Assembly: GCA_030019255.1 (NCBI GenBank)
Contig: JASEFK010000004.1
Coordinates: 15,370 to 79,369, forward strand
DNA length: 64,000 bases
Direction of reading: 5' to 3'
Source of the DNA: Actinomycetota bacterium
GTDB taxonomy: Bacteria > Actinomycetota > Geothermincolia > Geothermincolales > RBG-13-55-18
The notes beneath the pieces were generated by a model. The model was not told the origin of the DNA. It did not search any database and saw nothing but the letters and a program-made list of their open reading frames with translations. The number at the start of each line of letters is the position of its first letter. Positions within the stretch are counted from its first letter, which is position 1. Of this stretch, positions 16,499 to 39,431 are shown one piece after another. A program made the position numbers and the translations under genes.

Positions 16499-16537
16499 AG
16501 CTTCGAGCGCAAGAAGGCACGCTGGACGCGATGGCAT

Positions 16538-16786: not shown

Positions 16787-16966
16787 TGCGCAAAGGAAAG
16801 GCGAGAATTAAATAGAAGAAAAAAGTGTCACCACTCAATGCGAGAATCGAGGAGGGGTTAGGTAGAGCTTGCAGAAAGCGGGGCCTTGAGGCGGGGAAAC
16901 AACGCGGGTGGCGCGCCTTTCACGGTAAGCATTCAGACAAAGAGGTCGAAATGCGGGTCAACTGAA

Positions 16967-17686: not shown

Positions 17687-17877
17687 CAGAGGCAAGGGGA
17701 ACTTATTATGAGGTGAGGAAAAGGAAAGAGGAGGGTTAAAGCGAGCCGTTTCTGACCCAAATGCGTCAGCGAAACGTAGCGCGCGTTCCAAGGAGCGCGA
17801 AAAGACGCGGGCGTACGGGTGTGCGGAAGCAAGTGGGTTCCGGAAAACAAGAGACGTTGTATTACCGAGAATAAGGG

Positions 17878-21769: not shown

Positions 21770-22135
21770 TGCCGCATCACCCCTCGACCGCGGACCGGCA
21801 CCGTCGTATGAGTTGTAGTATACAGCACCCCCGCCGGGGAGGTCGGGTCCCCAATCGCGATCTGCTCCCACCTGGTGCGCAGGGAAAAACCCGCCGGCTC
21901 GAAAGCCAGGCCGGGAGGGAGGTAGTGGGCGGAACCGGGAAAGGTCCTGCAATGGAAGGTCGGCGGCATGGGATGGACGCTTACACGGAAAAGCGCAGGG
22001 TCTTCAAGGGGACCGCTCGCGGAGACGATAAATATTAAGCTTGGCATGCCCGCGATGGGCCGGAATGCCGCCACGCCCGCGAGAGCAAGAAGAGCGGCCG
22101 GGGCGCTGACATCCCTTCCGGGGAACGGTAGAGCG

Positions 22136-22996: not shown

Positions 22997-23223
22997 GGGC
23001 CGCGGCAACGGAGCCCGACCTCACCGGAGCGGTTGCGGAGGGCCGGGACCGACGGTCGCAGGGAGCCCTAATCGAGGTGGGGAAAGGCGAAGGGAACGAG
23101 CAAGACCTGCGGAAAGAAGCGCGGGGCGTCGAGGCGAGCGGATCGCCGCCCGGGGAAGGAAGCAAAAGGGCATAAAGGCGGACAAATACCTGCTCCCCGG
23201 AAGGAAGGACGGCGGACAGAATA

Positions 23224-23251
23224 TAAAACTATTATGACTGACTGCCGATTA
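23224..23251 (+). promoter_or_regulatory. Sigma-28 (FliA/SigD)-type promoter upstream of the MCP genes
   Basis: TAAA at 23224-23227, a 16-nt spacer, and GCCGATTA at 23244-23251. This matches TAAA-N15/16-GCCGATAA. It lies about 90 nt upstream of the MCP ATG at 23344. Confidence 0.55.
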
Positions 23252-23343
23252 AGCCAGTGGCAGCATGGCCGGATTGCTTTTCCAGCCCGGGCAGCAGCAT
23301 GAGACCCGGGCCTCCGGCCGCGAGGCGATGGAGGAATAGGGAC

Positions 23344-24723: not shown

Positions 24724-24746
24724 GGCGCGGAAGGGGTGGGGAGAAA

Positions 24747-26039
24747 ATGGACTCTCGCGAAAAGGAGATGAAGAAGACCGCCGAGAGCATCGCCAGGTTC
24801 GTGACCGTCACCTCGGCCATAGTCTTTCCCCTGGGGATAGCCCTGGACATAGGCATCGCTTGCGCGGCGGCTAAGCTCTCCTGGAACCCCTTCCTGGTGG
24901 GCCTCCTCTTCGGCTTCATCGCCATCGCGGTGACCATGTCCGCGGCAGCCCTTTACATTGTGCCGGTCTATCTTTTACCCGTCCGTTACCTGCGGCAGAT
25001 ACTGGAGCGACTGCGTGACAAGGACTTCACCGTCCATGCCGACGAGGAGAGGAGCGGGCTCCTGCGCGGCTTCGCCGTGGCCCTCAACGACCTGGCCGAC
25101 TCCATGCGCGCCATGTTGAGGGAGCAGGCGGAGACGGCGGACCAGCTCACCTCGGCCAGCGAGATGATGTCCGGCGTGTCCCGGGAGACCACGGAGACGG
25201 CCCAGGAGACGGCCAACACCGTCTCCCAGCTGGCGAGGGGGGCCGAGGAGCAGGTCAACGCCATCGTGCAGGCCCAGAACACGGTGAGCGAGATAGTGAG
25301 CGAGATCTCCCGGGTGGCGGAGAGCTCCCAGGAGGCCAACCGCTTCAGCCAGCAAGCCCAGGAGACGGTGGCCAAGGGGGTGATGGCCGTGCAGCGGGCC
25401 ACGGAGAAGATGCAGCAGATAAAAGCCACCGTGGACGCCTCCGCGGACGCAGTCAGGGAGTTGGGGGAGCACTCCACGCAGATCGGTCTCATCGTCGACG
25501 TTATCACCTCCATCGCTGACCAGACCAACCTCCTGGCCCTCAACGCGGCCATCGAGGCGGCCCGCGCCGGGGAGCAGGGAAGGGGCTTCGCCGTGGTGGC
25601 CGGGGAGGTGCGCAACCTAGCCGAGGGGTCGGCCAAGGCGGCCTCCCAGATCGCCAACCTGGTGAGGGAGATACAGCGGGGGATCGACCGCACCATCCAG
25701 GGAATGGAGGGCGGCACCCTGGTCGCGGATGAGGGTAACATGGTGGTGGGCGAGGCCAGGGAGATGCTCAAAGAGATCGACGAGGCCTCGAGGGCCATCG
25801 CCGAGAAGATATCCGCCATCTACGAGGCCACCCAGCAGATCTTCGAGAAGAGTGGCAAGGTGGTGGAGGCCATGAGCTCCATCGCGGGCATCTCGGAGGA
25901 ATCGGCGGCTTCCACCCAGGAGGTGTCCGCGTCCATCCAGGAACAGACGGCGGCCATGGAGGAAGTGACCGCCGCCGCCCAGGAATTGGAAGAAATTGCC
26001 AACAGGCTGCGGGCCATGCACCGGCAATTTAGGCTTTAG
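24747..26039 (+). CDS. Methyl-accepting chemotaxis protein paralog (membrane-anchored, no periplasmic ligand domain)
   Basis: 430 aa. N-terminal TM hairpin and an MA domain. It shares a 101-nt segment with the upstream MCP, with 2 mismatches. Confidence 0.88.
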
Positions 26040-26116
26040 GCGGGAGGTTTCGTTGAGGGCTGCTGCCGGTTGGGATATAGTGAATTCGAGGGCCGGCGCG
26101 GTCGGCGCGGGAGGAA

Positions 26117-26590
26117 ATGGAAATGGCTGAGGAAGCGAGGGCAGCCGAGGAGATCCAGCTGGTGGTCTTCGGCCTGGGGAAAGAGGAATTCGCCGTGGAG
26201 GTGACCCAGGTCCGGGAGATCATCCGCATGCAGGAGATAACGCGGATGCCCAAGAGCCCCCACTTCGTGGAGGGGATCATCAACCTCCGGGGGCAGATAA
26301 TCGCCGTCATCGATCTGGCCAAACGGCTGAACATCCCCTCCGGGGAACGGGGCCCCGAGACGAGGATCATCGTGGTGGAGGCCGAAGAGGTCAAGGTGGG
26401 GATGATCGTGGACTCCGTCTCCGAGGTGCTGCGGGTGAGCTCCGAGGCGGTGGAGCCCAACCCCTCCCTGGCCGCCGACGTGTCCGCCGCCTTCCTCCAA
26501 GGGGTGGTGAAGCACGACAACCGCCTCATCATCCTTCTAGACCTGACCAAGATACTGTCCATGGAGGAGATGGCCGGCCTCGGGTTTTAG
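26117..26590 (+). CDS. cheW: Chemotaxis coupling protein CheW
   Basis: 157 aa, CheW-like domain (QLVVFGLGKEEFAVEVTQVREI...). Confidence 0.9.
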   Translation: MEMAEEARAAEEIQLVVFGLGKEEFAVEVTQVREIIRMQEITRMPKSPHFVEGIINLRGQIIAVIDLAKRLNIPSGERGPETRIIVVEAEEVKVGMIVDSVSEVLRVSSEAVEPNPSLAADVSAAFLQGVVKHDNRLIILLDLTKILSMEEMAGLGF

Positions 26591-26769
26591 GAAAGGGGAG
26601 AGAGCTTTCGATATATAGATAGGAATGCAGTATCCCGGTCGGCAGCCCAAAGCGGCCGGGGCGTCACTGGATACGTCGGTAAACATCAAGAGGACGGGAG
26701 CTGAGAGGTATGGCCGGGAAGAAAGCGAGTACCGGGGACTCCGATAAACCAAAGGGAAAGGAGGGGAGG

Positions 26770-27135
26770 ATGGCGCCGACCGTTCTGATCGTCGACGACG
26801 CCCTGTTCATGCGCATGATGATCCGGGATATCCTGTCCAAGGACGGCTTTGAGGTGATCGGAGAGGCCGAGAACGGCGTGGAGGCGGTGGAGCGCTACAA
26901 GGAGATGCGGCCGGACCTGGTGACCATGGATATCGTCATGCCCGAGATGGACGGCATCGAGGCGGTCAGGCAAATCATGAAGATAGACCCCAACGCCAAG
27001 ATACTGATGTGCAGCGCCATGGGCCAACAGCCGCTGGTGGTGGAGGCGCTCGAGGCGGGGGCAAAGGACTTCATCATCAAACCCTTCCAGCCCTCGAAGG
27101 TCATCGAGGCGGTCGAGAAAGCGCTCAAGAGCTGA
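26770..27135 (+). CDS. cheY: Chemotaxis response regulator CheY
   Basis: Single receiver domain (LIVDD...DLVTMDIVMPEMDG...KDFIIKPF). The ATG at 26770 sits behind a GGAGGGGAGG SD. The upstream in-frame ATG at 26710 is the alternative. Confidence 0.85.
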   Translation: MAPTVLIVDDALFMRMMIRDILSKDGFEVIGEAENGVEAVERYKEMRPDLVTMDIVMPEMDGIEAVRQIMKIDPNAKILMCSAMGQQPLVVEALEAGAKDFIIKPFQPSKVIEAVEKALKS

Positions 27136-27160
27136 GCGTTTCTCCCCTGAAGGGGAGGAG

Positions 27161-28240
27161 GTGGATTTTTTGCCCCGCAAGATCAGGGTGCTGATAGTCG
27201 ACGATTCCGCCTTGGTGCGCAAGCTCCTGAAGGACATCATAAACGACGATCCGGACATGGAAGTGGCGGGAATAGCCGCCAACGGGGTGGAAGCCATCCG
27301 GGCCGTCGCCGAACTCCAACCCGACGTCATGACCATGGACATCCACATGCCCGAGATGGACGGCCTCACCGCCCTGGAATACATCATGCGCAAGATGCCC
27401 CTTCCCGTGGTGATGCTCAGCGCCATGGCCCAGAGGGGGGCGGCGGCCACCATTAAGGCCCTCGAGCTTGGGGCGGTGGACTTCATCACCAAGCCCTCCC
27501 ACTATCCCTCGGCGGTCAAGGAAGTGCGGGAGGAAGTAATCCTCAAGATAAAAACGGCCTTCCAGGCCCGGGAACGCGTGAAAAGGGGTTACCCGAAGCC
27601 CAGGGAGAGGAGAAGGGCCCTTCCGGTTATAAAGCCCGGGAGACAGGAGAAGCTGGTGGTCATCGGGGCATCGGCGGGCGGGCCGCGCGCCCTGGCGGAG
27701 ATCATGCCCATGTTTCCCCGAGACATCCCGGCGGCCATAGTCATCGTCCAGCACATGCCCAGCGTTTTCACCCGCTCCTTCGCCGCCCGGCTAAACGCCA
27801 TATCGGAACTACCGATCCGGGAGGCCGAGGAGGGAGAGGAGATCAAGCCGGGAACGGTACTGGTGGCCCCCGGGGGGAAGGATCTCATCGTGAGTTTGGA
27901 CCGCAGCGGGCTGGGGAGGGTGGAGCTCATGGATTCCGCCAACCGCACCGGGGCCACCCCCCGCATCGACACCACCATGATCACCGCCGCCGAGACCTTC
28001 GGCCCCCGGACCATCGGGGTAATCATGACCGGGATGGGATCGGACGGGGCCAGGGGGATGGAAAGGATAAAGAAGAACCGGGGAAGCACCATCGCCCAGG
28101 ACGAGGCAAGCTGCCTGGTGTTCGGCATGCCCAAGGTGGCCATCGACAGGGGCCACGTGGACTGGGTGGTCTCCCTGGAGAAGATACCGGAGAAGGTCCT
28201 GGAGCTTTTGCAGGCGCCCGAGCAGGAGCCTTCGAGGTGA
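27161..28240 (+). CDS. cheB: Chemotaxis methylesterase CheB (receiver plus methylesterase)
   Basis: 359 aa. N-terminal receiver and a C-terminal CheB_methylest domain (GASAGGPRAL...GMGSDGA). Confidence 0.9.
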   Translation: MDFLPRKIRVLIVDDSALVRKLLKDIINDDPDMEVAGIAANGVEAIRAVAELQPDVMTMDIHMPEMDGLTALEYIMRKMPLPVVMLSAMAQRGAAATIKALELGAVDFITKPSHYPSAVKEVREEVILKIKTAFQARERVKRGYPKPRERRRALPVIKPGRQEKLVVIGASAGGPRALAEIMPMFPRDIPAAIVIVQHMPSVFTRSFAARLNAISELPIREAEEGEEIKPGTVLVAPGGKDLIVSLDRSGLGRVELMDSANRTGATPRIDTTMITAAETFGPRTIGVIMTGMGSDGARGMERIKKNRGSTIAQDEASCLVFGMPKVAIDRGHVDWVVSLEKIPEKVLELLQAPEQEPSR

Positions 28241-28246
28241 CGGCCC

Positions 28247-30265
28247 ATGGACATGGACGTTTCCCAGTACAAGGAACTGTTCATCAACGAAGCCCAGGAA
28301 CACCTCGAAGCCCTGAACCAGGCCATGGTGGAACTGGAAAAGGATCCCGGGAACTCCGACGTGCTCACCGAGATCTTCCGATCCGCGCACACCCTGAAGG
28401 GTATGTCCGCCACCATGGGCTTCGACCAGCTGACGGAGCTGACCCACGAGATGGAGAATGTCCTCGACGGGCTGCGCAGCGGGGACATGGAGGCCACCAC
28501 CGAAATCGTGGATCTCCTCTTCAGCTGCCTCGACCTCCTGGGGTCCATGTTGGCGGCCATAGCCGAGGAGAGCGGCCGGACCGTGGACACCCAGCCGGTC
28601 ATCCAGGCCCTGCGGGAGGCTTCCGGAGGAGGGAGGCCCTCCTACGAGGTCGCGGTCCGATACGGCAAGTCGGAAGACCGCGAGGCGCCCAGCCCGAGCG
28701 GAGAAGGGGTGGGAGAGGCCGGGGCCCTTCCGGGGGAGGGGGCGGAAAGGCCCCCCGGAAGGGAGAGGGAGGTGCGCCTGCGGGTGACCCTGGACAGGGA
28801 TTGCGCCCTGAAGTCGGTGCGGGTGTTCATGATCTTCAAGAAGCTCTCCCGGGTGGGAAGGATAACCGGCTCCCAACCCTCCATGGAGGAGCTGGAGGAC
28901 GGGAAGTTCGAGCGCTCCTTCGAGGTCAGCCTGCTCACCGCGGAGAGCGAGGAAAGCCTGCGTCGCGACCTGATGACCATAGCCGAGGTCTCGGACGTGG
29001 AGTTCTTGGCCGCCGGGGAGTCCGCGGTCGTGGAGGCGGAGGAGGAATCGCGGGAGGCCGTCGAGAGGGTGGCTCCGGAGCCACCTCCCGGGCTCGAGCA
29101 TCCGGTGGCGGCACCGGTGCGCACCCAGAGCGTCAGGGTGAACATCGCCAGGCTGGACAACCTCATGAACCTCATCGGGGAGCTGGTGATAAACCGTACC
29201 CGGCTGCAGGAGATAGCCTCCTCCTACAACATTCCCGAGCTCAAGGAAGCCCTGGCGCAGACGGCGCGCCTCACCGCCGATCTCCAGGATGAGGTGATGA
29301 AGACGCGCATGGTTCCCGTAGACCATATCTTCAACCGCTTCCCGCGCATGGTGCGCGACCTGGCCAAGAGCCGGGGGAAGGAGATCGATTTCACCATGGA
29401 GGGGAGGGACATCGAACTGGACCGAACCATCCTGGACGAGATCAGCGATCCCCTTATGCACCTCTTGCGCAACGCCGTGGACCACGGCATAGACAGCCCG
29501 GAGGAGAGGGAGGCACGAGGAAAGCCCCGGCGGGGCAGCATCCGGCTGGCCGCCAGGAGGGACCGCAACTACGTGTCCATAGAGGTCTCCGACGACGGCC
29601 AGGGGATCGACGAACGCAAGATCTACGAGGCCGCGGTTCGGGCGGGGCTGGTGTCCCCGGAGGAGAAGAAGAGTCTCAGCGACGAGGACATCCTGCGTCT
29701 CTTGACCACGCCGGGTTTCTCCACCGCCCAGGAGGTGAGCGGGGTTTCGGGACGGGGGGTGGGCCTGGACGTGGTACGCAGCAAGGTGGAGTCCCTCGGG
29801 GGGATGCTGGTCATGAAGACCAGCAGGGGGGAGGGGACGACCTTCGCCATGAAGCTGCCCCTCACCCTGGCCATCATCCAGGCGCTGCTGGTCAGGGTGC
29901 AGGGTGAGACCTACGCCATCCCCCTGGGGACGGTCTCGGAGACGGCCGTGGTATCCTCGCACGAGATAAGGTACGTCTCCAACCAGGAGGTGATATTCCT
30001 TCGCGACGAGACCCTGCCCCTGCTGAGACTGGCCCGCTGCCTGGGCCTGCCGGACGAGGACGGCCGGGGAACCTTCCCCGTGGTGGTGGTGGAGGTAACG
30101 CCTCGCACGGTGGCCATAGCCGTGGACGAGCTGCTGGGGCAGCAGGAGATCGTCATCACCAGCCTGGACAAGTTCCTGAAGGGGATAAAGGGTTTCGGCG
30201 GCGCCACCATCCTGGGCACGGGCGAGGTGGCGCTCATACTGGACATACCGAGCCTGATATCCTGA
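28247..30265 (+). CDS. cheA: Chemotaxis histidine kinase CheA
   Basis: 672 aa. Hpt domain (FRSAHTLKGMSATMGF), dimerisation domain, HATPase_c and a CheW-like C-terminus. Confidence 0.95.
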   Translation: MDMDVSQYKELFINEAQEHLEALNQAMVELEKDPGNSDVLTEIFRSAHTLKGMSATMGFDQLTELTHEMENVLDGLRSGDMEATTEIVDLLFSCLDLLGSMLAAIAEESGRTVDTQPVIQALREASGGGRPSYEVAVRYGKSEDREAPSPSGEGVGEAGALPGEGAERPPGREREVRLRVTLDRDCALKSVRVFMIFKKLSRVGRITGSQPSMEELEDGKFERSFEVSLLTAESEESLRRDLMTIAEVSDVEFLAAGESAVVEAEEESREAVERVAPEPPPGLEHPVAAPVRTQSVRVNIARLDNLMNLIGELVINRTRLQEIASSYNIPELKEALAQTARLTADLQDEVMKTRMVPVDHIFNRFPRMVRDLAKSRGKEIDFTMEGRDIELDRTILDEISDPLMHLLRNAVDHGIDSPEEREARGKPRRGSIRLAARRDRNYVSIEVSDDGQGIDERKIYEAAVRAGLVSPEEKKSLSDEDILRLLTTPGFSTAQEVSGVSGRGVGLDVVRSKVESLGGMLVMKTSRGEGTTFAMKLPLTLAIIQALLVRVQGETYAIPLGTVSETAVVSSHEIRYVSNQEVIFLRDETLPLLRLARCLGLPDEDGRGTFPVVVVEVTPRTVAIAVDELLGQQEIVITSLDKFLKGIKGFGGATILGTGEVALILDIPSLIS

Positions 30266-30308
30266 TAATACAGGGGCGTCGGGCACGAGGACCGGGAAAG
30301 GAGGAGTC

Positions 30309-30923
30309 ATGGCCGAAAGGAAAGGGCTTACCCCCCTCCAGCTGGACGCGCTGAGGGAAGTGGGGAACATTGGCTCGGGAAACGCCGCCGTAGCCCTTTC
30401 CACCATGGTGGACAAGAAGGTGATGCTGAGCGTACCCCGTGCTTCCCTGGTCCCCCTGGTCAAGGTCTCCGACCTGGTGGGCGGGGCGGAGACGCCGGTG
30501 GTGGGCATCTACCTGCACATAAGCGGAGACGCCTCGGGCAGCATGCTCCTCCTGCTGGAGGAGCACAGCGCCCGGGAGCTGGCCCACCTCATGGTCTCCG
30601 GCACGGAGGGCGGGGAGCTCACGGTGGTAGAACAGTCCGCCCTCCAGGAGACGGGAAGCATCCTGGCCGGTTCCTACCTCAACGCCCTCTCCCAGATGAC
30701 CGGCATACTCCTGAAGCCCTCAGTGCCCGGCTTCGCCATGGACATGGCGGGGGCCATCATCGATTTCATCCTGGTGGAGATAAGCCAGTCCGAGGACTAC
30801 GTCCTGGTCATCGAGACGGAATTCGACGTCCTGCAGCACAAGATAAGGGGACACCTGATCCTGTTCCCGGACCTGGGGTCCCTGGACATCATCCTGGGAA
30901 GGCTTGGGGTGACGGCGGATTGA
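30309..30923 (+). CDS. cheC: CheY-P phosphatase CheC
   Basis: 204 aa. CheC-family repeats (EVGNIGSGNAAVALS ... ETGSILAGSYLNAL). Confidence 0.85.
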   Translation: MAERKGLTPLQLDALREVGNIGSGNAAVALSTMVDKKVMLSVPRASLVPLVKVSDLVGGAETPVVGIYLHISGDASGSMLLLLEEHSARELAHLMVSGTEGGELTVVEQSALQETGSILAGSYLNALSQMTGILLKPSVPGFAMDMAGAIIDFILVEISQSEDYVLVIETEFDVLQHKIRGHLILFPDLGSLDIILGRLGVTAD

Positions 30924-31450
30924 CGGAGGAGACCCTGACCGAGAAAGTGATCAACGTGGGCGTGGCCGAATACTACGTGACCCACAACCCCCACATCCTG
31001 GCCAGCTTCGGCCTGGGGAGCTGCGTGGGCGTGGCCCTTTACGACGAGAAGAAGAAGATCGGCGGCCTGGCCCACATCATGCTGCCCGATTCCAGGGCCA
31101 TAAGCAAGCCGGGGAAGCCGGGCCGCTGCGCCGACACCGCCATAAGGGCCATGGTGGAGGAGATGGAGAAGCTGGGATCCCGGCGGAAGGACATCAAGGC
31201 CAAGATAGCTGGCGGAGCCTGCATGTTCACCATCCCCGGCGCCACCAACCCCAAGAACGTTCCCGGCCCGGCCATCGGGATGCAGATAGGGGAGAGGAAC
31301 GTGGAGGCGGCCAAGAGGACGCTGCGGGAGCTTAAAATCCCCCTAGTGGCGGAGGACACCGGAGGCAATTACGGACGGACCATGCGCTTCAACGTGTCCG
31401 ACGGCACGGTGGTTATAAGCTCCATAAGGCATGGGACCAAGGAGCTCTAA
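30920..31450 (+). CDS. cheD: Chemoreceptor glutamine deamidase CheD
   Basis: 176 aa. CheD family (VGVAEYYV...GLGSCVGVALYD). The start overlaps the cheC stop. Confidence 0.85.
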   Translation: MTEETLTEKVINVGVAEYYVTHNPHILASFGLGSCVGVALYDEKKKIGGLAHIMLPDSRAISKPGKPGRCADTAIRAMVEEMEKLGSRRKDIKAKIAGGACMFTIPGATNPKNVPGPAIGMQIGERNVEAAKRTLRELKIPLVAEDTGGNYGRTMRFNVSDGTVVISSIRHGTKEL

Positions 31451-31457
31451 GGTGACC

Positions 31458-31796
31458 ATGAAGGGCGAGGGCGTGGAGGTGTCCCGGGAGGCCATCGCCA
31501 CCCTGGCGGCGCAGGCGGCCTGCCAGGTGCCGGGGGTGGTATCTTGCTACCGCAGCCCGGTGGACAGCCTGGCCTCCAGGGTGAAGCGGGAGTTCGTGCA
31601 CAAGGGCATCAAGGTGGAAAACGTCGAGGGGGCATACCGCCTGGGCGTCCACCTGAGGGTGGAATACGGGGTGAACCTTCCTTCACTGGCGCGGGAGGTG
31701 AGGGAAAAGGTACGGGAGTACCTGGAGGGCCTTACCGACGTGAAGGTGGAGGATGTGGAGGTGATCATCGAGGACATCGAGCCCCCGCCTTCCTGA
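31458..31796 (+). CDS. Asp23/Gls24-family (alkaline-shock-like) protein
   Basis: 112 aa from the ATG at 31458. MKGEGVEVSREAIATLAAQAA...VKVEDVEVIIEDIE is typical of the family. Confidence 0.7.
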   Translation: MKGEGVEVSREAIATLAAQAACQVPGVVSCYRSPVDSLASRVKREFVHKGIKVENVEGAYRLGVHLRVEYGVNLPSLAREVREKVREYLEGLTDVKVEDVEVIIEDIEPPPS

Positions 31797-31878: not shown

Positions 31879-32883
31879 TCAGGAGCTCTCCCCCTTATCC
31901 TCGGGAGGATTGAAGTAGGCGGCGATTGCCCCCGCCAGGGCCGGGCCCAGCCCCGCCGGTATTTCCAGGCCGGGAGGCCATTCCACGACCACGCAGGGCA
32001 TGCGGGTCTCCCTCAGCAGGGGGTAACTCCGGGCCTCGGGAGAGGGCACGGGGACGCCGAGCGCATCCTTCATCCGGGAAGCCACGAGTTCCGCCAGCCG
32101 CCTGCCGCGGGGAGAGAAGTACTTTTTACTTCCGAAGAAGAAGACGCTGACCCGGTCGGAATCGCCGGGGCGGAAACCAACGACCGCGTCCGCCCCCCTC
32201 TGGTTGGCCGCCTGGGCCCGCTGGCTCTCCGACGCGGGCGCGGCGGGGCCCCCGGTCAATATGGTAAATATTCCCATATCACGCAGAACCAGGGAAGCAC
32301 GGCGTAGTGCCTCCGCGAGCTCGATCTGATCCGGGTCGAGGTCCAGCACCACTAGCCGTTCCCTCAGGCCGCGGTCCTCGCCGTCCCTAAGGGCCTCATG
32401 GACCACGGCCACGCTGGTCTCCTTCATGGCGTGCCTCAGTCGCAGGAGGCAGGAGATGGTGGAGGTTCCGGCGATCCCGTCCACGGGAAGGCCCATGTCG
32501 TGCTGGAAGGCACGCAGTGCCCGGTCGGTGTCCTGGCCGAAGATGCCGTCCTCGCGGCCGGCGTTGAACCCCAGTCGGTTGAGGTAGGACTGGAGCTCCC
32601 TCACGTCGTCGCCGCGGAAGGGCGGCACGCGCAGGTAGAGGAAGCGGTCGCCGAGGCGGAAGGAGGCCTCCACCAGCTCGCGCCAGGTGACCTCGTCCAC
32701 GCGGCCGTCCGGTCGCAGTCCGCGGGCGGACTGGAACTGGCGCACTGCCGCCTCTGTGGCCTCACCGAAGGAGAGCTCGCGCATCTCCGCCTCCATGCCC
32801 GGCGGCGAATAACCCAGTTCGTGGAGCCTTTTCTGGACGTCGGCCACCGGAAGTCCGCGGTCACCGCGGGAGATGGGCTGCAC
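31879..32883 (-). CDS. Two peptidoglycan-binding (PG_binding_1) domains plus a degenerate Amidase_3 (MurNAc-LAA-like) domain lacking the catalytic His residues
   Basis: 334 aa. The two PG_binding_1-type repeats run DVQKRLHELGYSPPG...FGEATEAAVRQFQ and DVRELQSYLNRLGFNAG...FGQDTDRALRAFQ. The C-terminal region is colinear with Amidase_3. VVLDLDPDQ replaces VVIDAGHGG, and VVGFRPGD replaces ISIHADA. ETRMPCVVVEWP matches the E..P.VLVE motif. Confidence 0.65.
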   Translation of the reverse strand: MQPISRGDRGLPVADVQKRLHELGYSPPGMEAEMRELSFGEATEAAVRQFQSARGLRPDGRVDEVTWRELVEASFRLGDRFLYLRVPPFRGDDVRELQSYLNRLGFNAGREDGIFGQDTDRALRAFQHDMGLPVDGIAGTSTISCLLRLRHAMKETSVAVVHEALRDGEDRGLRERLVVLDLDPDQIELAEALRRASLVLRDMGIFTILTGGPAAPASESQRAQAANQRGADAVVGFRPGDSDRVSVFFFGSKKYFSPRGRRLAELVASRMKDALGVPVPSPEARSYPLLRETRMPCVVVEWPPGLEIPAGLGPALAGAIAAYFNPPEDKGESS

Positions 32884-32886
32884 GTC

Positions 32887-35016
32887 TCATTCCCCCTCGT
32901 GGACGGGAAGGGTGAATTTGAAGGAAGACCCCTTTCCCGGCTCGCTTTCCACCCAGATGCGACCACCGTGGCTTTCCACGATGCCCTTGGATATGACCAG
33001 CCCCAGCCCCAGGCCGCCGGCGGAGCGGGTGGAGTCGGTCTCCACCTGGTAGAACATGGTAAACAACCTCCTCTGCTCGTGGAGGGGGATGCCGGGCCCG
33101 GTGTCCCGGACCTCGAATTCCACCATCCCCTCCTCCCGCGAGCGGCGGGCGGAGACCTCCACGGTCCCGCCCGGGGGAGTGAACTTGATGGCGTTGCCGA
33201 TGAGGTTCTCCAGCACCTGGTGGACCCTCCACACGTCTACGCTCACCGGGGGAAGCCCCTCCTCCACGGAGGATACGAGGCCCAATCCCCTTTCCGCCGC
33301 CTGGTTCCCGTATTCCGAGACCGCGTTGGCGATCAGCTCTTCCACGGGGGCGGGCCATTTCTTCCCTACCAGGCGGCCTTCTTCCAGGCGAGTGATGTCC
33401 AGGAGGTCGTTGATGATCTTGGTCATCTGGTCTGCTCGGGCGTTGATTATCCGAATCTTGTCCATCTGGAAGGGGGTGAGCTCTCCCAGCTCGCCGAACT
33501 GGAAGGCGTCGGCGTATCCCTTGATGATGGAGAGGGGGGTGCGCAGTTCGTGGGAGGCGATGGCTATGAAGTCCGATTTCATCTTGTCCAGCACGGAGAG
33601 CTCTTCGTAGGCCCTTTCCAGGTCCTGGTGGCTCTGCTCCACCATGGCCTCCAGTCGCCGGCGCTCGCTGAGGTCGTGGGCGATGCCCACGATACCCACC
33701 AGGTTACCTCCCCGGAAGACAGGCGCCGAGCTTATCTGCACCGGAAGCGGGGATCCATCGGCGCGGCGCAGCGAGGTCTCGAAGAAGACCTTCTCTCCGC
33801 GGCGACGCCTCTCTAACATCCGCTCCACCTTGTCCACCTCTTCCGGGACCACGACGTCCCGGGGCTCCTTGCGCATGAGCTCGTCGGGATGTGCGAGGCC
33901 CAGCATGTCCAGGAAGGCCTGGTTACAGAAGGTAAAACGGCCATCGGCGTCCATGGCGTAGAAACCGTCGTTGAGGCTCTCGATGAGCAGGTTGAGGTAG
34001 TCGGTGGTCTCGGCCAGACGGCGCTCCAGGCGCACGTATTCGCTCACCTCCTCGAAGAGGAGCAGGGCCTCCCGCACGTTGCCCTGTTCGTCCAGCAGGG
34101 GATGAAGGCGGACGCGGTGAAAGTGGTCCGTCCCCCCCACCACCTGGTGCACCCGCGGCTGCTCGAAGGAGCGCCCCTCCACCAACACCCGCCGCAGGAT
34201 GTGCTTCCAGTCGGCACGGAATTCCTGGGGCATGATGTCCAGGGCGGGCAGCCCCTCGAGCTCTTGCGGATCGATGCCCATGGCCTCGATCACCCACTCC
34301 TGCATGGACCGGTTGCAGCGCAGGACTCGGAAGTTGCGGTCCAGTACGGCGATCTTTACGGGCACGCTCTCGAAAATGCCCGCCTCGCGTTCCGAGACCT
34401 CCCTGAGAACCGCCTTTTCCCGGGCCTCGGCGGTGATGTCTTCCACGAGCACCAGGAAGAGGTCGCCCCGCGACCCCTCCCGGGAAGCCGTATTAGCCGG
34501 ACTTATCCGCACGCGGCATACCCCGGAGCGGTCCTCGAGGAAGTACTGCTCGAAATCGCGCTCCAGGGTCCCCCCCTGGCTACGGGCCTTCTCCAGATAG
34601 AGGGACCAGCTCCCGAAGAAGGGGGGCAGGAAGGCCTGGTCGAGGCGGCCGCCGGGCTCCAGGGCGCCATGGTGCCCCGCTTGGCGGGGCAGATCGCGGG
34701 CCGCGGCGTTGGTTCCCAGGATGCGCCCGCTCCCGTCCACCAGTATGGCGGGCACGGGGAGGAGGGAGAGGAAGGCTTCCCACCGGACCATGGAAGGGTG
34801 AGCGGGACGGCTCCGCCGGGCGGAGTGCCTGAGGAGAAAGAAAGTGGAAACGGGAATCGATGCCAGTGTTAAGGCGGCGAAAGCCACCCCTGCGGCCCTC
34901 CAACCCGCCGCCGTGAAGGCCAGGCAGAGCAGGGCCGGCAGGAGGGGTGCTGAGGCGGCAAGAAGGGGTGGGCTAACGCGCCTGTTCATCCCCCTCACCT
35001 TCCTCCGGGCGGGCAC
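32887..35016 (-). CDS. Membrane-anchored multi-PAS sensor histidine kinase
   Basis: 709 aa. Two N-terminal TM segments, at least two PAS domains, HisKA (IASHELRTPLSIIKGY) and HATPase_c (GLGLGLVISKGIVESHGG). Confidence 0.9.
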   Translation of the reverse strand: MPARRKVRGMNRRVSPPLLAASAPLLPALLCLAFTAAGWRAAGVAFAALTLASIPVSTFFLLRHSARRSRPAHPSMVRWEAFLSLLPVPAILVDGSGRILGTNAAARDLPRQAGHHGALEPGGRLDQAFLPPFFGSWSLYLEKARSQGGTLERDFEQYFLEDRSGVCRVRISPANTASREGSRGDLFLVLVEDITAEAREKAVLREVSEREAGIFESVPVKIAVLDRNFRVLRCNRSMQEWVIEAMGIDPQELEGLPALDIMPQEFRADWKHILRRVLVEGRSFEQPRVHQVVGGTDHFHRVRLHPLLDEQGNVREALLLFEEVSEYVRLERRLAETTDYLNLLIESLNDGFYAMDADGRFTFCNQAFLDMLGLAHPDELMRKEPRDVVVPEEVDKVERMLERRRRGEKVFFETSLRRADGSPLPVQISSAPVFRGGNLVGIVGIAHDLSERRRLEAMVEQSHQDLERAYEELSVLDKMKSDFIAIASHELRTPLSIIKGYADAFQFGELGELTPFQMDKIRIINARADQMTKIINDLLDITRLEEGRLVGKKWPAPVEELIANAVSEYGNQAAERGLGLVSSVEEGLPPVSVDVWRVHQVLENLIGNAIKFTPPGGTVEVSARRSREEGMVEFEVRDTGPGIPLHEQRRLFTMFYQVETDSTRSAGGLGLGLVISKGIVESHGGRIWVESEPGKGSSFKFTLPVHEGE

Positions 35017-35350
35017 CGCGAAGCTCCCCCCATATCCAGCTCCAGTACCTGGCCACGGTGGGCAGGGCCAGGGATATGGCGACGGTCATGGGGATGGAGG
35101 CCACCAGCAGCTTTATCACCAGGCCGGTGCGGGGGTCGGGTTCGGGGAGCCCCCAGGCCCCGAGCATGAGAAGAGTCCAGGAGACGGGCAGGGGGAGGAG
35201 GAAGAAGAAGACCGACAGGCCGAAGAGGCGGTAATAGGGTGGTATCTCCAGGGCCTCTCCCAGCCTCCTACTGAGGGACATGAGCAGCAGCAGCATGGCC
35301 CCCACGGAGAGGGGCCCGATGATGTACAGGGACGAGGACAGGTAGATCAT
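34973..35350 (-). CDS. Small polytopic membrane protein, second half of a split pair
   Basis: An ATG at 35350 (MIYLSSSLYIIGPL...) overlaps the upstream stop as ATGA. About 125 aa and 3-4 TM. Its 3' end overlaps the HK start by about 44 nt. Confidence 0.5.
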   Translation of the reverse strand: MIYLSSSLYIIGPLSVGAMLLLLMSLSRRLGEALEIPPYYRLFGLSVFFFLLPLPVSWTLLMLGAWGLPEPDPRTGLVIKLLVASIPMTVAISLALPTVARYWSWIWGELRGARPEEGEGDEQAR

Positions 35351-35652
35351 CTTCCCAGCATCAGGCGGTAAGCCCGGTAGACCACCACGAAAAGGCAGAC
35401 GCCCGCCAGCGCCGGCCAGATCGCCAGGTGAAGATATATGGCCACTATCGATTCTCCCACCGAGAAGATGAACGTGCTCAGCCCCATGAGGAGGAAGAAG
35501 GGGATGATGAGAAAAGGATAGGTGCGACCCCCAAACTTGTCCTCCGCCAGCCGGCATATTCCGTAGAAATAGACCAGCACCAGGGCGGTGGCGGAGGTGT
35601 TGTAGAACCACAGGAAGAGGGAAAAGGTCTTCAGCCAGTCGTAGGACGTCAC
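35347..35652 (-). CDS. Small polytopic membrane protein, first half of a split pair
   Basis: 101 aa with about 3-4 hydrophobic helices. It lies between the receiver gene and the HK. Confidence 0.5.
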   Translation of the reverse strand: MTSYDWLKTFSLFLWFYNTSATALVLVYFYGICRLAEDKFGGRTYPFLIIPFFLLMGLSTFIFSVGESIVAIYLHLAIWPALAGVCLFVVVYRAYRLMLGR

Positions 35653-35690
35653 CGCTCTCCCCTTCTCGGCCAGAATTCGCGCCCGGGTCC

Positions 35691-36086
35691 CTAGGAAGAG
35701 CCCGAGCTGCGCCTGCGCTCGTCCAGGATGCGCCTCACCTCGGTGAGCAGCTCCTGCTTGCTGAAAGGCTTGGTGATATAGCCCGCCGCCTTCATCACCG
35801 AGAGCCCGATCATCTTATCGATGTTCTGGGTGCGGGCGGTGATGAAGGCCACCGGCGTGTCCTTCGCTTCGGGATCGTTCTTGATGCGGCGAAGGACCTC
35901 CCAACCGTCCACCCTGGGCATCATGATGTCCAGGAGTATGAGGTCGGGCTTTTCCCGGAAGGTCTTCTCCAGCGCTTCCTCGCCGGAGAAAGCCGAGACG
36001 GTGGTGTACCCCGCGTTCCCCAGGAAGAGCTCGATCAGCTCCACCATCTCGCGATCGTCGTCCACGATGAGGATCTTTTCCGCCAC
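35691..36086 (-). CDS. Stand-alone CheY-like response-regulator receiver
   Basis: 131 aa. KILIVDDD...LILLDIMMPRVDG...YITKPF. The start is immediately adjacent to the KaiC-like stop. Confidence 0.9.
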   Translation of the reverse strand: MAEKILIVDDDREMVELIELFLGNAGYTTVSAFSGEEALEKTFREKPDLILLDIMMPRVDGWEVLRRIKNDPEAKDTPVAFITARTQNIDKMIGLSVMKAAGYITKPFSKQELLTEVRRILDERRRSSGSS

Positions 36087-36896
36087 CTACTTCACCTCCC
36101 CCTTCCCGGCTTTCCCCTTGGGGCCGAACACCTCGACGAAGGCGTCGATCTCCCTCTTGCGGGGCAGGCCGGAGAGCACCCCCTCCCGGTCGGAGAACGG
36201 CTCGCCGATCAGGATTCCCCGTTCGGTGATGCGAAACTCCCTTATGGACTTGTCGTGCGAGCTGGCCCTCTGCTTGAGCACCAGCATGGCGCGGGCGATG
36301 GAGGAATCGAGCTCCACGTAGCGCAGGATGATGACCGCGTCCACCAGGTAGGAGATGCCGTACTGCGCGGCGGCCATGTCGCCGGTGATGCCCGGGTCTT
36401 CCTGGGTTACCAGGGCGGTGAGGCCGTGCCGGAGGAGGGCGTTGGTGAAGGTGAAGGCAATCTCCCGCATCTTTACCGGGTCGCGGGTGAGCCTCTCCAG
36501 GTGGGAGATGGAGTCCACGAGTATCCTGCGCGCTCCCAGCTCCTGCACCATGGTGTCCAGGAGCCCCCCGGAGGCCTGGGCCTGCTCGAAGAAGATCTCG
36601 GGAGAGGTGAAGAGGATGCGCACCAGGCCTCTGCGCTCAAGGTCCTGGAGGTCGAAGCCCAGGGAAATGGCGTCGCGCAGGAGCTTCTTGGGAAAGTGCT
36701 CGAAGGTCACTATGAGCCCCGGTTCCCCGAATTCTTCGGCGCCCCTGGCGATAAATTCCAGTCCCAGGCAGGTTTTTCCAGTTCCCGGTGCCCCCAGAAC
36801 CAGGGTCACCGAACCCCGGTACGGCCCGCCGTCCATCATCTCGTCGAGCCTGGGGATGCCGGTGGAAGCCCGTTCCCTTACCGATTCCTCGTTCAT
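36087..36896 (-). CDS. Single-domain KaiC-like RecA-superfamily ATPase (COG0467-type signalling ATPase)
   Basis: 269 aa. GIPRLDEMMDGG...LVLGAPGTGKT Walker A, VTFEH (compare KaiC VTFEE), ILVDSIS Walker B. Confidence 0.85.
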   Translation of the reverse strand: MNEESVRERASTGIPRLDEMMDGGPYRGSVTLVLGAPGTGKTCLGLEFIARGAEEFGEPGLIVTFEHFPKKLLRDAISLGFDLQDLERRGLVRILFTSPEIFFEQAQASGGLLDTMVQELGARRILVDSISHLERLTRDPVKMREIAFTFTNALLRHGLTALVTQEDPGITGDMAAAQYGISYLVDAVIILRYVELDSSIARAMLVLKQRASSHDKSIREFRITERGILIGEPFSDREGVLSGLPRKREIDAFVEVFGPKGKAGKGEVK

Positions 36897-37153
36897 CCAG
36901 CCTCCCTCTTCAACTCTTATTATACACGCCGATTATACACGCCGGCCTCCCTCCCCTTCCCCCGGGGGCCGGGCAGCCTCCGGGCGGAGGTCGCGGGTAG
37001 CGGCTTCCCGGTGATGGGTGTGCGGAACCCGACGCCGGGGTTTCCGCTCCCGGCGTTCGCGTAAAGAATAGGTTTAGAGAGAACTCCACATAAAGGAGAA
37101 AAGCTTTCGGCCGGGCGGCGGCGGAGGTCGCGGCAGCGTGCTATACTTATAAC

Positions 37154-37428
37154 GTGATCGTGCTAGGCGGGGAGCTAGCGGTGCCCTGTACCCGCAATCC
37201 GCTATAGCGGGGCTTAATTCCCAACTGAGGCTCTCCGGTCTTGAGTATGGCGCGCCGGCAAGCGGCGTTGAAGGTCGGGTCCTGCGCAACGGGAACTTGC
37301 GAACCCCGTCAGGTCCGGAAGGAAGCAGCGGTAAGCAAATCTTCCCGGGTGCCGCAGACCAACCTGACCGGAGCAGGCTACCGGCGTAGCGCTCGGGGTC
37401 GGGAGTCGAAGGCGGGTGCACGATCACA
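37154..37428 (+). ncRNA. ffs: Signal recognition particle RNA, large Bacillus-type with an Alu domain
   Basis: The domain IV motif ccGTCAGGTCCGGAAGGAAGCAGCgg lies at 37303-37330. The 5' region GTGCTAGGCGGGGAGCTAGCGGTGCCCTGTACCCGCAATCCGCTATAGCGGGGC is near-identical to B. subtilis scRNA. The 5'/3' terminal pairing is gtgatcgtgc/gcacgatcac. About 275 nt, immediately upstream of dnaX as in Firmicutes. Confidence 0.85.
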
Positions 37429-37478
37429 TATATTTGCCCGCGATCATCCGATGTTAGAAGGCCGGGAGAAGATAGGAA

Positions 37479-39431
37479 TTGGCTTACATCTCGCTTTACC
37501 GCAAGTGGCGCCCCCAGACCTTCGAGGAGGTGGTGGGCCAGGAGTACGTGACCCGGACCCTGGCCAACGCCGTCCGCTCCGGGAACATCGCCCACGCCTA
37601 CCTTTTCGCCGGCCCGCGGGGAACGGGGAAGACCAGCACCGCGCGCATCCTGGCCAAGGCCCTGAACTGCGAGGAGGGCCCCACCCCCAACCCCTGCAAC
37701 CATTGCTCCTCCTGCCGTTCCATAACCGACGGCACCTCGGTGGACGTGGTGGAGATAGACGCGGCCTCCAACCGCGGCATAGACGACATCCGGGACCTGC
37801 GGGAGAGGGTTATCTTCACCCCCGCCTCTTCGCGGGTCAAGGTCTACATCCTCGACGAGGCCCACATGATAACCAAGGAGGCCTTCAACGCCTTCCTCAA
37901 GACGCTGGAGGAACCGCCGGCCCACGCGGTCTTCGTCCTGGCCACCACCGAGCCCCACAAGCTCCCGCAGACCATCCTTTCCCGCTGCCAGAGGCATGAT
38001 TTCCGCAGCGTCCCCGCCCCCCTGTTGGCCGAGTACCTCCGGAGGGTGGCCGGGGAGGAGGGCTACCGGGTCACCCCGGAGGCCCTGCGCCTGGTAGCCC
38101 GCCGGGCGAGGGGATCGGTGCGCGATGCCCTGGTGGCGCTGGAGCAGTTGGCCAGCTACGGGGATGGGGTGGTGGAGGAATCCGATGCCGCGGGCTTCCT
38201 GGGGCTCATAGAGGACGAGGTGCTGCTGGAGATGGGAGAGTCGCTCATCGGGGGCGACCTCCAGGCGGTGATTTCCATGGTCGAGAGGGTTCACGAGGAG
38301 GGGAGGGACCTGGCACACTTCGCGGCCCAGGTCCAGGAACATTTTCGCAAGGTCCTCCTCCTCCAGCACGCCGACCTCGGGGCGGTGGACCTGGAGGTGG
38401 ACGAGGATTCCCTGCGCAGGCTGCGCGAGCAGGCCTCCCTCCTTTCGCCGGAGAGAACCCTGCACTTCATCGCCGCCATGGGGCGCGCCCGCGAGGAGAT
38501 GAAGCAGTCCTCCTCCCCCCGCCTGGTCCTGGAGAGCGCCCTGATAGCCATGGCCCGGGAAGACCTGGAGGGCACCCCGGAGGCCATCCTCGCCCGCCTC
38601 AAGAGGCTGGAGGGAAAGCTGGAGGGGATGGCGCACCGGGAGGCCGCCACCGCGGCGCTCCGGGGGGAGGCCCGCACTGGGAGGGCTGCGACCCGCTCCG
38701 GGGGCGCGGCCGCGGCGGTAACGGAGGCGGAGGCGGCAGGCGCGGGGCCGGAAGAAATAAAGGCGGAGGCGGGAGCGGCGGAGGTGGCCGCGGAACCAGA
38801 AGGGCCCCGCGAGGAGCCGGAAGCGGTAGTCGAGGAACCGGCAGCGGCCGTTTCCCGCGAGGACTCCTCCGCGGCCGGGCTGGACCTGGCGGCGGTGCGG
38901 AAGTCCTGGGCTCGGGTCAAGGAGCGAGTGCGGGAGATAAAAGTCCCGACCCACGCCCTGCTGCTGGAGGGAAAGCCCCTCCGCCTGGAGGGCGACGAGC
39001 TGGTGATCTCCTTCCCTTCCGACCGCTCCTTTCACTACCGTGAGCTGAGCAAGGAAAACCACAGGCGCGTCGTGGAGCGGGCCCTGGAGGAGGTGCTGGG
39101 GGCGCCCCTGCGGGTGAGCGCCGTCCTGGAGGAGGGAGGCCGGGGGTCGGCAGAGGCTCCCGCTCCGGTGGGGAAGTCCCGCGGTTCCTCCGTCCGGTCG
39201 AGGCGGGCGGCAAGGGAGGGAGAGGCCGGGGGCATTCCTGATACGGGCGAGGATGAAGGCGCCGTCGAGCGGCAGCCGGAGACGGCGCCGCGGCGGGCGC
39301 CGGAGGACGTGGAAAAGGAGGTCGCTGCCCCGGTGGAAAAGGAAGCCGGGGCCGGAGAGGCTGGCAAGGTGAAGCTGCTTAAGGACATCTTCGGGGCAGA
39401 GATGGTGGAGGAGATAAAGCTCCAGGAGTGA
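37479..39431 (+). CDS. dnaX: DNA polymerase III subunits gamma/tau
   Basis: 650 aa. TTG start, [25 protein letters not shown]+ motifs GPRGTGKTS. Ala/Glu-rich linker. Confidence 0.9.

Follow-up and report, generated by a model that had tools for sequence, protein, structure and literature searches.

KaiC homologues are widespread outside cyanobacteria, where their roles are mostly unclear. In a stretch of 64,000 nucleotides from an Actinomycetota genome (contig JASEFK010000004.1, assembly GCA_030019255.1; hereafter the window), we found six genes that lie head-to-tail and tightly packed on the minus strand from position 36896 to 31879 and that, on balance, probably constitute a single operon encoding a membrane-associated KaiC-type signalling module. 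They code for a KaiC-like ATPase, a response regulator that consists of a receiver only (REC), two three-helix membrane proteins (TM1 and TM2), a histidine kinase (HK) and a CwlM-family protein. The conserved core of the module consists of the KaiC-like ATPase, TM1 and TM2, which occur together in about 40 further loci, mostly of the Chloroflexi type; together, the locus and its approximately 50 relatives represent a compact and well-defined form of KaiC-based gene arrangement.

An initial annotation of the window had proposed that a KaiC-like ATPase, a receiver, a split membrane protein, a multi-PAS histidine kinase and a peptidoglycan-binding protein with a dead amidase fold form one uncharacterised signalling module. 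All these genes are present on the minus strand where it had placed them and, because domain searches match the assignments that it made, the underlying observation is confirmed, except that it spoke of five genes where there are six. What had been overlooked is the KaiC-like/TM1/TM2 core with its alternative partners, either a winged helix-turn-helix (wHTH) protein or a REC.

Organisation of the gene cluster

The first gene of the cluster, encoding the KaiC-like ATPase of 269 amino acids (aa; 36087-36896), is followed by that of the 131-aa REC (35691-36086) with a gap of 0 nt, the GTG start of the latter standing directly after the TAG stop of the former, as had been noted initially. The genes of TM1 (35347-35652, 101 aa) and TM2 (34973-35350, 125 aa) share an ATGA overlap by which they are translationally coupled to each other. 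The HK gene (32887-35016) encodes 709 aa when read from a GTG codon, or 700 aa from an ATG at 34989 that is preceded by a strong Shine-Dalgarno-like run, and accordingly overlaps the end of the TM2 gene by 44 nt or by 17 nt, respectively. The TM1-TM2 and TM2-HK overlaps had been reported by the initial annotation and are seen in the sequence. The CwlM-like gene (31879-32883, 334 aa) starts 3 nt past the HK stop.

Upstream of the start codon of the KaiC-like gene lies a perfect tandem direct repeat on the minus strand, GGCGTGTATAAT-c-GGCGTGTATAAT (36919-36943), of which the copies are one base apart. It holds two extended -10-like elements, TGTATAAT, located 22-35 nt 5' of the KaiC-like ATG, and a Shine-Dalgarno-like run, GAGGGAGG, is found at 36901-36908 before the gene. 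By these motifs, the repeat region may be regarded as a candidate operon promoter. No promoter was reported by a consensus scan that depends on a -35 hexamer, and a terminator scan gave terminator-like sites only at chance level.

A single CII-like domain of the KaiC family

In a Pfam search, the ATPase matched the KaiC family PF06745 with an E-value of 8.8e-50 and 169.7 bits (cutoff 26.6), covering model positions 2-228 of 231. The RadA/Sms model TIGR00416 of NCBIfam matched residues 7-80 only (E 4.4e-4, 19 bits) and the ArlH/FlaH models gave weak matches, far under their cutoffs (E 7e-8 to 3e-11), such that RadA/Sms, ArlH/FlaH and RadB are ruled out on score and the initial assignment to the KaiC family rather than to RadA/Sms holds. 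The equivalog models of circadian KaiC, TIGR02655 and NF006799, were not reached (177 bits versus 408 and 130.9 versus 546, respectively) and align only to their CII half, the ATPase being one domain and not a tandem of CI and CII. Its best relatives in the PDB are likewise KaiC proteins, with 156 bits to CII domains versus 110 bits to CI.

The protein possesses a Walker A motif GAPGTGKT (G35-T42), a catalytic glutamate E66 followed by H67, the Walker B aspartate D128 and the pair K208/R210. Walker A, E66, D128 and K208/R210 are invariant in 12 diverse members of the subfamily and match the motifs of KaiC CII. The motif VTFEH, initially remarked upon as departing from the VTFEE of KaiC, was read as such (E66, H67); the residue after the catalytic glutamate, a histidine here, is glutamate or glutamine in other members. 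Judged from these motifs, the ATPase keeps every catalytic element; it is a single CII-like domain of the KaiC family and not a circadian KaiC.

In an alignment of structural homologues, S182 aligns with the phosphorylated residue position S431 of KaiC, and the position of T432 is taken by Y183. Members of the Chloroflexi type and of the type of locus L086 have alanine or proline in place of this serine ('GLAF', 'APF'); autophosphorylation at the S431 site therefore cannot be a shared mechanism and, as a general mechanism, was ruled out. Among the genes called within 10 kb on each side, no Pfam family of kaiB or kaiA was found. Together with the poor conservation of the serine across the subfamily, this speaks against the clock-like behaviour that had been suggested at first. 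In a scan of genome contigs with the full KaiC-like alignment, the distant relatives among the matches listed share 24-34% identity and are mostly proteobacterial; many of the loci of these distant relatives, again among the matches listed, hold a second KaiC-like match adjoining the first.

TM1 and TM2, a rare pair of membrane proteins

TM1 and TM2 belong to no family in Pfam, NCBIfam or PADLOC, and because of this lack of any family annotation the module as a whole is uncharacterised, in agreement with the initial claim. With iterated hidden Markov models (HMMs), TM1 was located in about 50 loci, where its gene immediately follows the KaiC-like one. It is marked by a loop motif 'R(I/L)A.(F/L).E..(S/F)G.R', of which the form 'RIA.FYE..SGQR' reads CRLAEDKFGGRT in the window protein, and by a C-terminal 'L..LM.G'. 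The corresponding motifs of TM2 are a loop 'LS(R/K)RLGE..k.P.YYR' and an invariant C-terminal 'YW.W'.

AlphaFold2 predicted three helices for TM1 (residues 3-40, 46-65 and 69-98) with moderate confidence, from 2 sequences only (predicted local distance difference test, pLDDT, 76.5), and three for TM2 (2-34, 41-65 and 73-112) from a 36-sequence alignment (pLDDT 88.7; predicted template modelling score, pTM, 0.73). Hydropathy agrees with three long helices in each. In both proteins, the external loops are very short. The conserved motifs lie in the C-terminus and in the loop that follows helix 1; both segments are basic and would, by the positive-inside rule, face the cytoplasm. Conserved Pro and Gly residues occur in the helices, and the membrane core of the six-helix pair, whose loops are minimal, is devoid of conserved charges.

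An hhalign comparison of TM1 with TM2 aligned all three helices in register (probability 63%, E 6.8e-5), which suggests that the two are paralogues forming a heteromer. An hmmsearch with TM2 of 1.84 billion representative sequences yielded 56 clusters at E <=1e-3, so the family is rare. Their lengths range from 36 to 127 aa, with 55 of the 56 within 93-127 aa and a single fragment of 36 aa, and in none of the 56 is TM2 fused to another domain. A concatenate of TM1 and TM2 retrieved 11 close relatives of 124-125 aa, each of which matches one half. The initial view of a split membrane protein was rejected, since every TM2 cluster is at most 127 aa long and none is a fusion; the two are instead small, possibly paralogous proteins.

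The two-component pair

The HK contains two N-terminal hydrophobic spans, matches to several PAS families in three stretches (Pfam and NCBIfam), a HisKA domain (E 1.5e-16) and a HATPase_c domain (E 1.3e-32), which bears out its description as a 709-aa membrane-bound PAS histidine kinase. Its H-box reads SHELRTP, with His489 in the 709-aa numbering. By hydropathy, its anchor is a two-helix membrane hairpin with virtually no external loop. The REC (Response_reg, E 5.5e-28) has an acidic pocket (D9/D10/D11), the phospho-acceptor D53, T83 and K106, and no output domain, such that the residue set of a two-component pair (H-box and HATPase_c of the kinase; acidic pocket, Asp, Thr and Lys of the receiver) is complete.

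In 14 of 30 non-redundant loci with TM2, the start of an HK reading frame lies at the TM2 stop or overlaps it. The type of kinase differs between lineages, with PAS domains and a membrane hairpin in the clade of the window and multiple GAF domains (2-6 GAF stretches) in the six Chloroflexi-type kinases that were scanned. In Chloroflexi-type kinases following TM2, Pfam detected no membrane or receiver domain, and the one N-terminus that was read, that of the kinase in locus L107, has no hydrophobic segment.

Conservation of gene order and the exchangeable partner

Relatives were collected by exact-match and homologue look-ups and by a metagenome scan with the C-terminal part of the KaiC-like alignment, which by itself gave 80 loci, and were analysed with iterated HMMs built from the window proteins. 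Four architectures emerged. In the first (architecture A, about 40 loci, KaiC identity 45-52%, some labelled Chloroflexi or Anaerolineae), a wHTH gene precedes the KaiC-like, TM1 and TM2 genes. The Solincola-type clade (architecture B) has KaiC-like, REC, TM1 and TM2, with a PAS-containing HK in most and a peptidoglycan-binding gene in many loci. In three independent loci (L086, L099 and L105; architecture C), the REC follows the KaiC-like, TM1 and TM2 genes, at times with a second REC; in L099 and L105 (e.g. L105, 1599-2367), two REC genes stand in tandem, the second overlapping the first. Finally, a single locus (L107; architecture D) consists of TM1, TM2 and a GAF-type HK, and no KaiC-like or wHTH gene is present within 5 kb of it.

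Solincola-type relatives with as little as approximately 59% KaiC identity, locus L104 included, still have the order KaiC-REC-TM1-TM2, and because it recurs over this range the arrangement is not a chance juxtaposition; the conservation of gene order that was predicted initially is thereby established. KaiC-like, HK and response regulator genes stand together, as in the network known from Pseudomonas, in the window and in L001-L007, L023-L030 and L103. The CwlM-like gene follows the HK in L025, L026, L028 and L103 and is absent from L007 and L030, which do have an HK. In L104 (7759-8004, GCA_040961035.1), the HK has been reduced to a PAS remnant of 81 aa; the locus keeps KaiC-REC-TM1-TM2 and the CwlM-like gene, and its REC is left without a local kinase. 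Conversely, L107 (4624-7969, GCA_010092845.1) stands in the same context of SecA and adenosine deaminase genes in which locus L010 has architecture A, so that the two loci represent a natural swap of the cytoplasmic partner. The retention of TM1-TM2-HK in L107 in the absence of a KaiC-like gene suggests that the TM1-TM2 pair is the constant, input-side element.

A further subclade (L008, L033-L038) has a paralogous KaiC-like gene with 55-60% identity followed by a wHTH gene, without TM1 and TM2. At least three of these paralogue loci, L008 (8001-9197), L035 and L038, also encode a related REC on the same strand; in L008, its gene stands about 3.5 kb upstream. From a shared locus-tag prefix, Candidatus Solincola sediminis appears to carry both this KaiC-wHTH paralogue and the module.

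When RECs that adjoin KaiC-TM1-TM2 in unrelated loci were compared with the window REC, they scored 93-109 bits, against 44 bits for the CheY encoded elsewhere in the window; by sequence, the RECs of the module resemble one another far more than the local CheY. We counted the fourth component in the 27 non-redundant loci that have the KaiC-like gene and TM1/TM2 with room on both sides: 19 have a wHTH gene only and 8 a REC gene only, and none has both or neither. The nominal Fisher p for this exclusivity, 4.5e-7, overstates the independence of the loci, because only about three REC lineages are independent.

A PDB profile search with the wHTH protein of architecture A returned the 'putative transcriptional regulator' 3r0a (E 1.3e-3) and AdcR (E 0.014). 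In Pfam, 9 of 14 members matched HVO_A0114 (best E 5.5e-5) and 3 of 14 MarR_2; the weak matches include the archaeal families HVO_A0114 and DUF7342. Faint as these similarities are, they point to a small partner of the winged-helix type. No homologue of this protein is encoded in the window.

A tail-less CwlM homologue as last gene

The product of the last gene contains two PG_binding_1 domains (E 1.1e-38), the first of which starts at about residue 5, and a degenerate Amidase_3-like domain, for which the Pfam match (E 1.1e-5, 25.9 bits) stays under the cutoff of 27 and covers only positions 37-142 of 174. No amidase is among its PDB sequence matches. BLASTP aligned it to CwlM of Mycobacterium tuberculosis (reference sequence P0241, its identity confirmed by exact look-up) over 335 collinear residues at 32% identity (E 2e-33). 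Its 'VGFRPGD' aligns with 'ISLRCE' of M. tuberculosis CwlM, which represents the same change of His to Arg; the sequence P0230 keeps 'SIHLNSH'. In addition, the first metal-site loop of the window protein has a 17-residue deletion. With a sub-threshold Pfam match and the metal ligands lost, the protein is predicted not to be an active Amidase_3 amidase. The initial description as a peptidoglycan-binding protein with a dead amidase was thus correct in its domains, and missed that the protein is a CwlM homologue.

CwlM homologues combine two peptidoglycan-binding domains with an amidase domain, occur almost exclusively in Actinobacteria, lack a secretion signal, often have degenerate zinc ligands and usually carry a C-terminal PTG/TGT phospho-tail, and phosphorylated CwlM activates MurA in the cytoplasm (Boutte et al. 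2016). The window protein shares with them the domain order, the occurrence in Actinobacteria, the absence of a secretion signal (by hydropathy, the first 60 residues are free of hydrophobic spans, so that no signal peptide is apparent) and the degenerate metal ligands. The phospho-tail is missing: there is no Thr-rich PTG/TGT stretch, and the C-terminus, ...YFNPPEDKGESS, contains no Thr. The region of the REEEL helix is partly conserved ('VHEALRDGEDRG' versus 'AIREEELVRSSG'). The last gene product is therefore a tail-less member of the CwlM family. Given this homology and the lack of a signal peptide, it is probably of the cytoplasmic regulator type, and the reading as an extracellular, wall-bound sensor was ruled out on the same two grounds. 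The proposal that a cell-wall-binding pseudo-enzyme takes part in envelope sensing also has to contend with the absence of the gene from L007 and L030, and is not supported.

Comparison with known systems

KaiC-family ATPases adjoining two-component genes are already a known kind. In Pseudomonas, a KaiC-family ATPase, a PAS-containing HK and an output-less receiver are encoded in one predicted operon, and the KaiC homologue bound the kinase via its PAS domain and also bound the receiver (bioRxiv 10.1101/2022.01.26.477890). Unlike the window protein with its single CII-like domain, the Pseudomonas homologues phosphorylate at one or two sites, and the description of that network includes no TM1/TM2-type membrane proteins, no wHTH alternative and no CwlM-like gene. 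The KaiC homologues of Pseudomonas are two-domain proteins like KaiC itself. With cyanobacterial KaiC CII, the window ATPase shares 156 bits, the same Walker motifs, the catalytic Glu, the Lys/Arg finger region and the serine equivalent to S431, and by analogy the KaiC-SasA/CikA-RpaA system, in which the state of a hexameric ATPase is read by histidine kinases, may be comparable. It differs from cyanobacterial KaiC in having no CI domain, KaiA or KaiB, in the replacement of T432 by Y and of E319 by H and in equivalog scores below the cutoffs; moreover, the window module is membrane-linked.

The intramembrane-sensing kinases of the LiaFSR and BceRS-AB type resemble the window HK in their two-helix hairpin with a negligible external loop and in the small membrane proteins encoded next to them, which could provide the stimulus, and differ in having no long PAS arrays, unrelated accessory proteins and no KaiC-like ATPase. 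M. tuberculosis CwlM and the last gene product have in common the two peptidoglycan-binding domains and an Amidase_3-like domain, the lack of a secretion signal, an Arg for the metal-binding His, the occurrence in Actinomycetota and a position near the origin. The window protein is without the Thr-rich PTG/TGT tail, which is the target of PknB and is needed for the activation of MurA, and has an extra deletion of 17 residues; its gene is predicted to be co-transcribed with a histidine kinase and is not linked to a Ser/Thr kinase.

Among archaea, Galperin et al. 2018 (PMC5847659), summarising Makarova et al. 2017, describe KaiC-REC fusions in Methanosarcinaceae and KaiC-like 'signal transduction hubs' that likewise combine single-domain KaiC-like proteins with receiver domains and small winged-helix-type partners. 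Compared with the hubs as summarised there, the window module differs in being bacterial (Actinomycetota, Chloroflexota), in its separate genes and in its obligatory pair of three-helix membrane proteins. ArlH of the ArlH-ArlI-ArlJ archaellum motor is also a single-domain KaiC-like protein that functions at a membrane platform, and autophosphorylation of ArlH governs both its oligomerisation and its binding of partners (bioRxiv 10.1101/2021.03.19.436134). No ArlI or ArlJ homologue is present here, and TM1 and TM2 are unrelated small proteins.

No description of the module was found in the searchable literature, the archaeal KaiC survey of Makarova et al. 2017 lying outside that scope. To call it not described, as was done initially, is nevertheless too strong, in that KaiC-REC fusions are known in archaea. 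The new elements are a single CII-like domain strictly coupled to a rare and unannotated three-helix membrane pair, the interchangeable wHTH/REC partner, the recurrent kinase junction at the TM2 stop and the tail-less CwlM that ends the operon in Geothermincolia. A reading as an anti-phage defence system was discarded, PADLOC having returned only generic REC, HATPase and P-loop fragments at E 7e-7 or weaker.

Proposed mechanism and alternative explanations

We propose that TM1 and TM2 would form a heteromer of 3+3 helices in the membrane, of which the basic cytoplasmic loops and the aromatic C-terminal tails might dock a KaiC-like hexamer at the membrane and which may contact the hairpin-anchored kinase within the membrane. 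Because there are almost no external loops, the pair would report the state of the membrane or envelope and not the presence of a soluble ligand. Depending on its bound nucleotide, the hexamer would then set the balance between kinase and phosphatase activity of the PAS kinase, for which the action of KaiC on SasA and CikA and the binding of Pseudomonas KaiC homologues to their kinase could serve as precedents; in the Solincola-type clade, autophosphorylation of S182 may contribute to this control. The kinase presumably phosphorylates the stand-alone REC at D53. Since the REC has no output domain and takes the slot that is occupied by the wHTH protein in other lineages, it might bind back to the KaiC-like hexamer or serve as a phosphate sink; a direct link between the two would be supported by the KaiC-REC fusions of Methanosarcinaceae. 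A role of the CwlM homologue as an effector linking the module to MurA and the synthesis of peptidoglycan precursors is speculative.

Extended to all lineages, this scheme would make TM1/TM2 and the CII-like KaiC a previously unrecognised, self-contained membrane signalling core of Terrabacteria, in which a paralogous heteromer senses the membrane or envelope and docks the hexamer, interchangeable adaptors read the state of the hexamer and lead either to transcription (wHTH) or to a phosphorelay (REC and HK), and the output in Solincola reaches peptidoglycan precursors via the tail-less CwlM, as a form of MurA control without a Ser/Thr kinase. In this full extent, the proposal is doubtful.

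Several points weigh against the membrane-associated KaiC-type module as we read it. The HK is missing from approximately half of the loci and from L104, and the KaiC-like gene is missing from L107, so that only TM1-TM2 is obligatory. The 19:8 exclusivity of wHTH and REC rests on about three REC lineages. The serine at the S431 position is not family-wide, and the second residue of the catalytic pair varies (H, E or Q). The CwlM homologue is, by its sequence, without the phospho-tail that CwlM needs to activate MurA, and it is missing from L007 and L030. Finally, every step of the proposed mechanism derives from gene neighbourhood and analogy, and signals could flow from KaiC to the HK or, in the opposite direction, from HK/REC to KaiC.

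For the last gene alone, the chances are evenly divided between a functional tie to the module and an explanation in which the CwlM-like gene has a housekeeping function, the regulation of peptidoglycan precursor synthesis, at its ancestral site near the origin, and transcription of the KaiC module that happens to stand upstream runs on into it. The gene lies in the replication-origin region (gyrA to parB), and cwlM (Rv3915) adjoins parB-parA-gid-yidC-dnaA on the M. tuberculosis H37Rv map. The whole neighbourhood from dnaX to the che genes is syntenic in relatives, and the module occurs without a CwlM-like gene in L007 and L030. The spacing is nonetheless operon-like, with a gap of 3 nt here and an overlap of 4 nt in L104, and in the latter locus the linkage persists despite the loss of the intervening kinase. 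We consider the CwlM-like gene probably co-transcribed with the module, of which it may be a passenger and not a genuine component.

Within the core, the KaiC-like hexamer could itself be the output and act as an engine that drives TM1/TM2 as a channel, translocon or membrane-remodelling unit, the phosphorylated REC or the wHTH protein being the switch and the kinase the sensor. We regard this as unlikely. In its favour, RecA-superfamily hexamers commonly power membrane machines, the KaiC-like protein and TM1/TM2 form the most constant trio, and the transmembrane helices have conserved Pro and Gly residues. ArlH, a KaiC-like protein with a single domain, is part of the ArlI/ArlJ archaellum motor (bioRxiv 10.1101/2021.03.19.436134). 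However, six helices with minimal loops and no conserved charges in the membrane core would make a poor transporter, the accessory proteins are all of the signalling type (wHTH, REC, GAF/PAS kinases), and L107 has kept TM1-TM2 with a kinase and no ATPase.

An improbable alternative, in our opinion, is that TM1 and TM2 are helpers of the kinase, comparable to LiaF or BceAB, and that the KaiC-like ATPase, with the wHTH protein or REC, acts as a separate, co-expressed regulator that makes no contact with the membrane pair. Intramembrane-sensing kinases typically need accessory membrane proteins, and the hairpin anchor of the window kinase lacks a sensing loop. The window is one of many loci in which the TM2 stop overlaps the start of the kinase, and in L107 TM1-TM2-HK exists alone; both observations fit this explanation as well. 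It does not account for the 16 of 30 loci in which KaiC-TM1-TM2 stands without an adjacent kinase, nor for L104, which lost the kinase and kept KaiC-REC-TM1-TM2; and in Chloroflexi-type kinases contact with TM1/TM2 in the membrane is unlikely, because Pfam shows no membrane domain in them and the N-terminus from L107 has no hydrophobic segment. A timer, in which phosphorylation of the KaiC-like protein would cycle in the manner of a clock or an hourglass and thereby gate the two-component pair in time, is very unlikely. The nearest solved relatives of the protein are KaiC CII domains, S182 aligns with S431 and Pseudomonas KaiC homologues show culture-age-dependent phosphorylation (bioRxiv 10.1101/2022.01.26.477890), but a single domain offers no stacking of CI and CII rings, kaiB and kaiA are absent from the 20 kb around the gene, a tyrosine stands at the T432 position, the subfamily does not conserve the serine, and the cutoffs of the KaiC equivalogs were missed (177 versus 408 and 131 versus 546 bits).

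For the membrane-associated KaiC-type module, the natural variants (loss of the kinase in L104, loss of KaiC in L107, the exchange of wHTH and REC, and the placement of the REC before or after the TM pair) lead to specific predictions on binding partners and on the direction of the signal. Its hosts are uncultured; the comparative pattern is clean, and the basic logic of KaiC, HK and response regulator has already been described. Moreover, the CwlM family is extended to the deep actinobacterial class Geothermincolia in a tail-less form, which bears on the evolution of MurA control.

Genomic surroundings

Divergent from the KaiC-like gene and just 5' of dnaX, a bacterial signal recognition particle (SRP) RNA of the large type (RF01854, 218.7 bits) was found on the plus strand at 37158-37423. 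The stop-to-stop reading frames over it (e.g. 37074-39062 on the minus strand) are spurious. Beyond this RNA, dnaX-ybaB-recR-ask-asd are directed away from the cluster. On the other flank, a convergent gene of the Asp23 family closes a complete che operon on the plus strand (21968-31796), which comprises cheR, two genes for methyl-accepting chemotaxis proteins, cheW, cheY, cheB, cheA, cheC and cheD, followed by the Asp23-family gene. Chemotaxis genes are reported to be absent from one published metagenome-assembled genome of Solincola and present in others.

The replication-origin region (2738-19543) holds gyrA, gyrB, recF and dnaN together with dnaA, which is on the minus strand (10129-11463); yidC, rsmG, parA and parB follow on the plus strand. 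The cumulative GC skew has its minimum near 10 kb (about position 10000) and the skew changes sign between 8 and 18 kb, where the G+C content falls to 0.50-0.55. Directly 5' of dnaA, an open reading frame of 246 aa (11513-12253, minus strand) encodes both a HATPase_c-like domain (E 5.7e-11) and an IclR-type helix-turn-helix (E 2.1e-6), which is an unusual combination for an origin. Between dnaA and yidC, in a stretch of low G+C content, a frame of 320 aa on the plus strand (13145-14107) has no Pfam match and may not be a real gene; oriC, rpmH and rnpA are expected in that stretch. A tRNA gene (RF00005, 57.7 bits) is located at 62353-62437 on the plus strand. In locus L001 (1-4111), ask-asd is followed by two adjacent genes for Rce1-like (CPBP) intramembrane proteases and a gene for a zinc-ribbon protein, and the Rce1-like gene pair is also present in L007.

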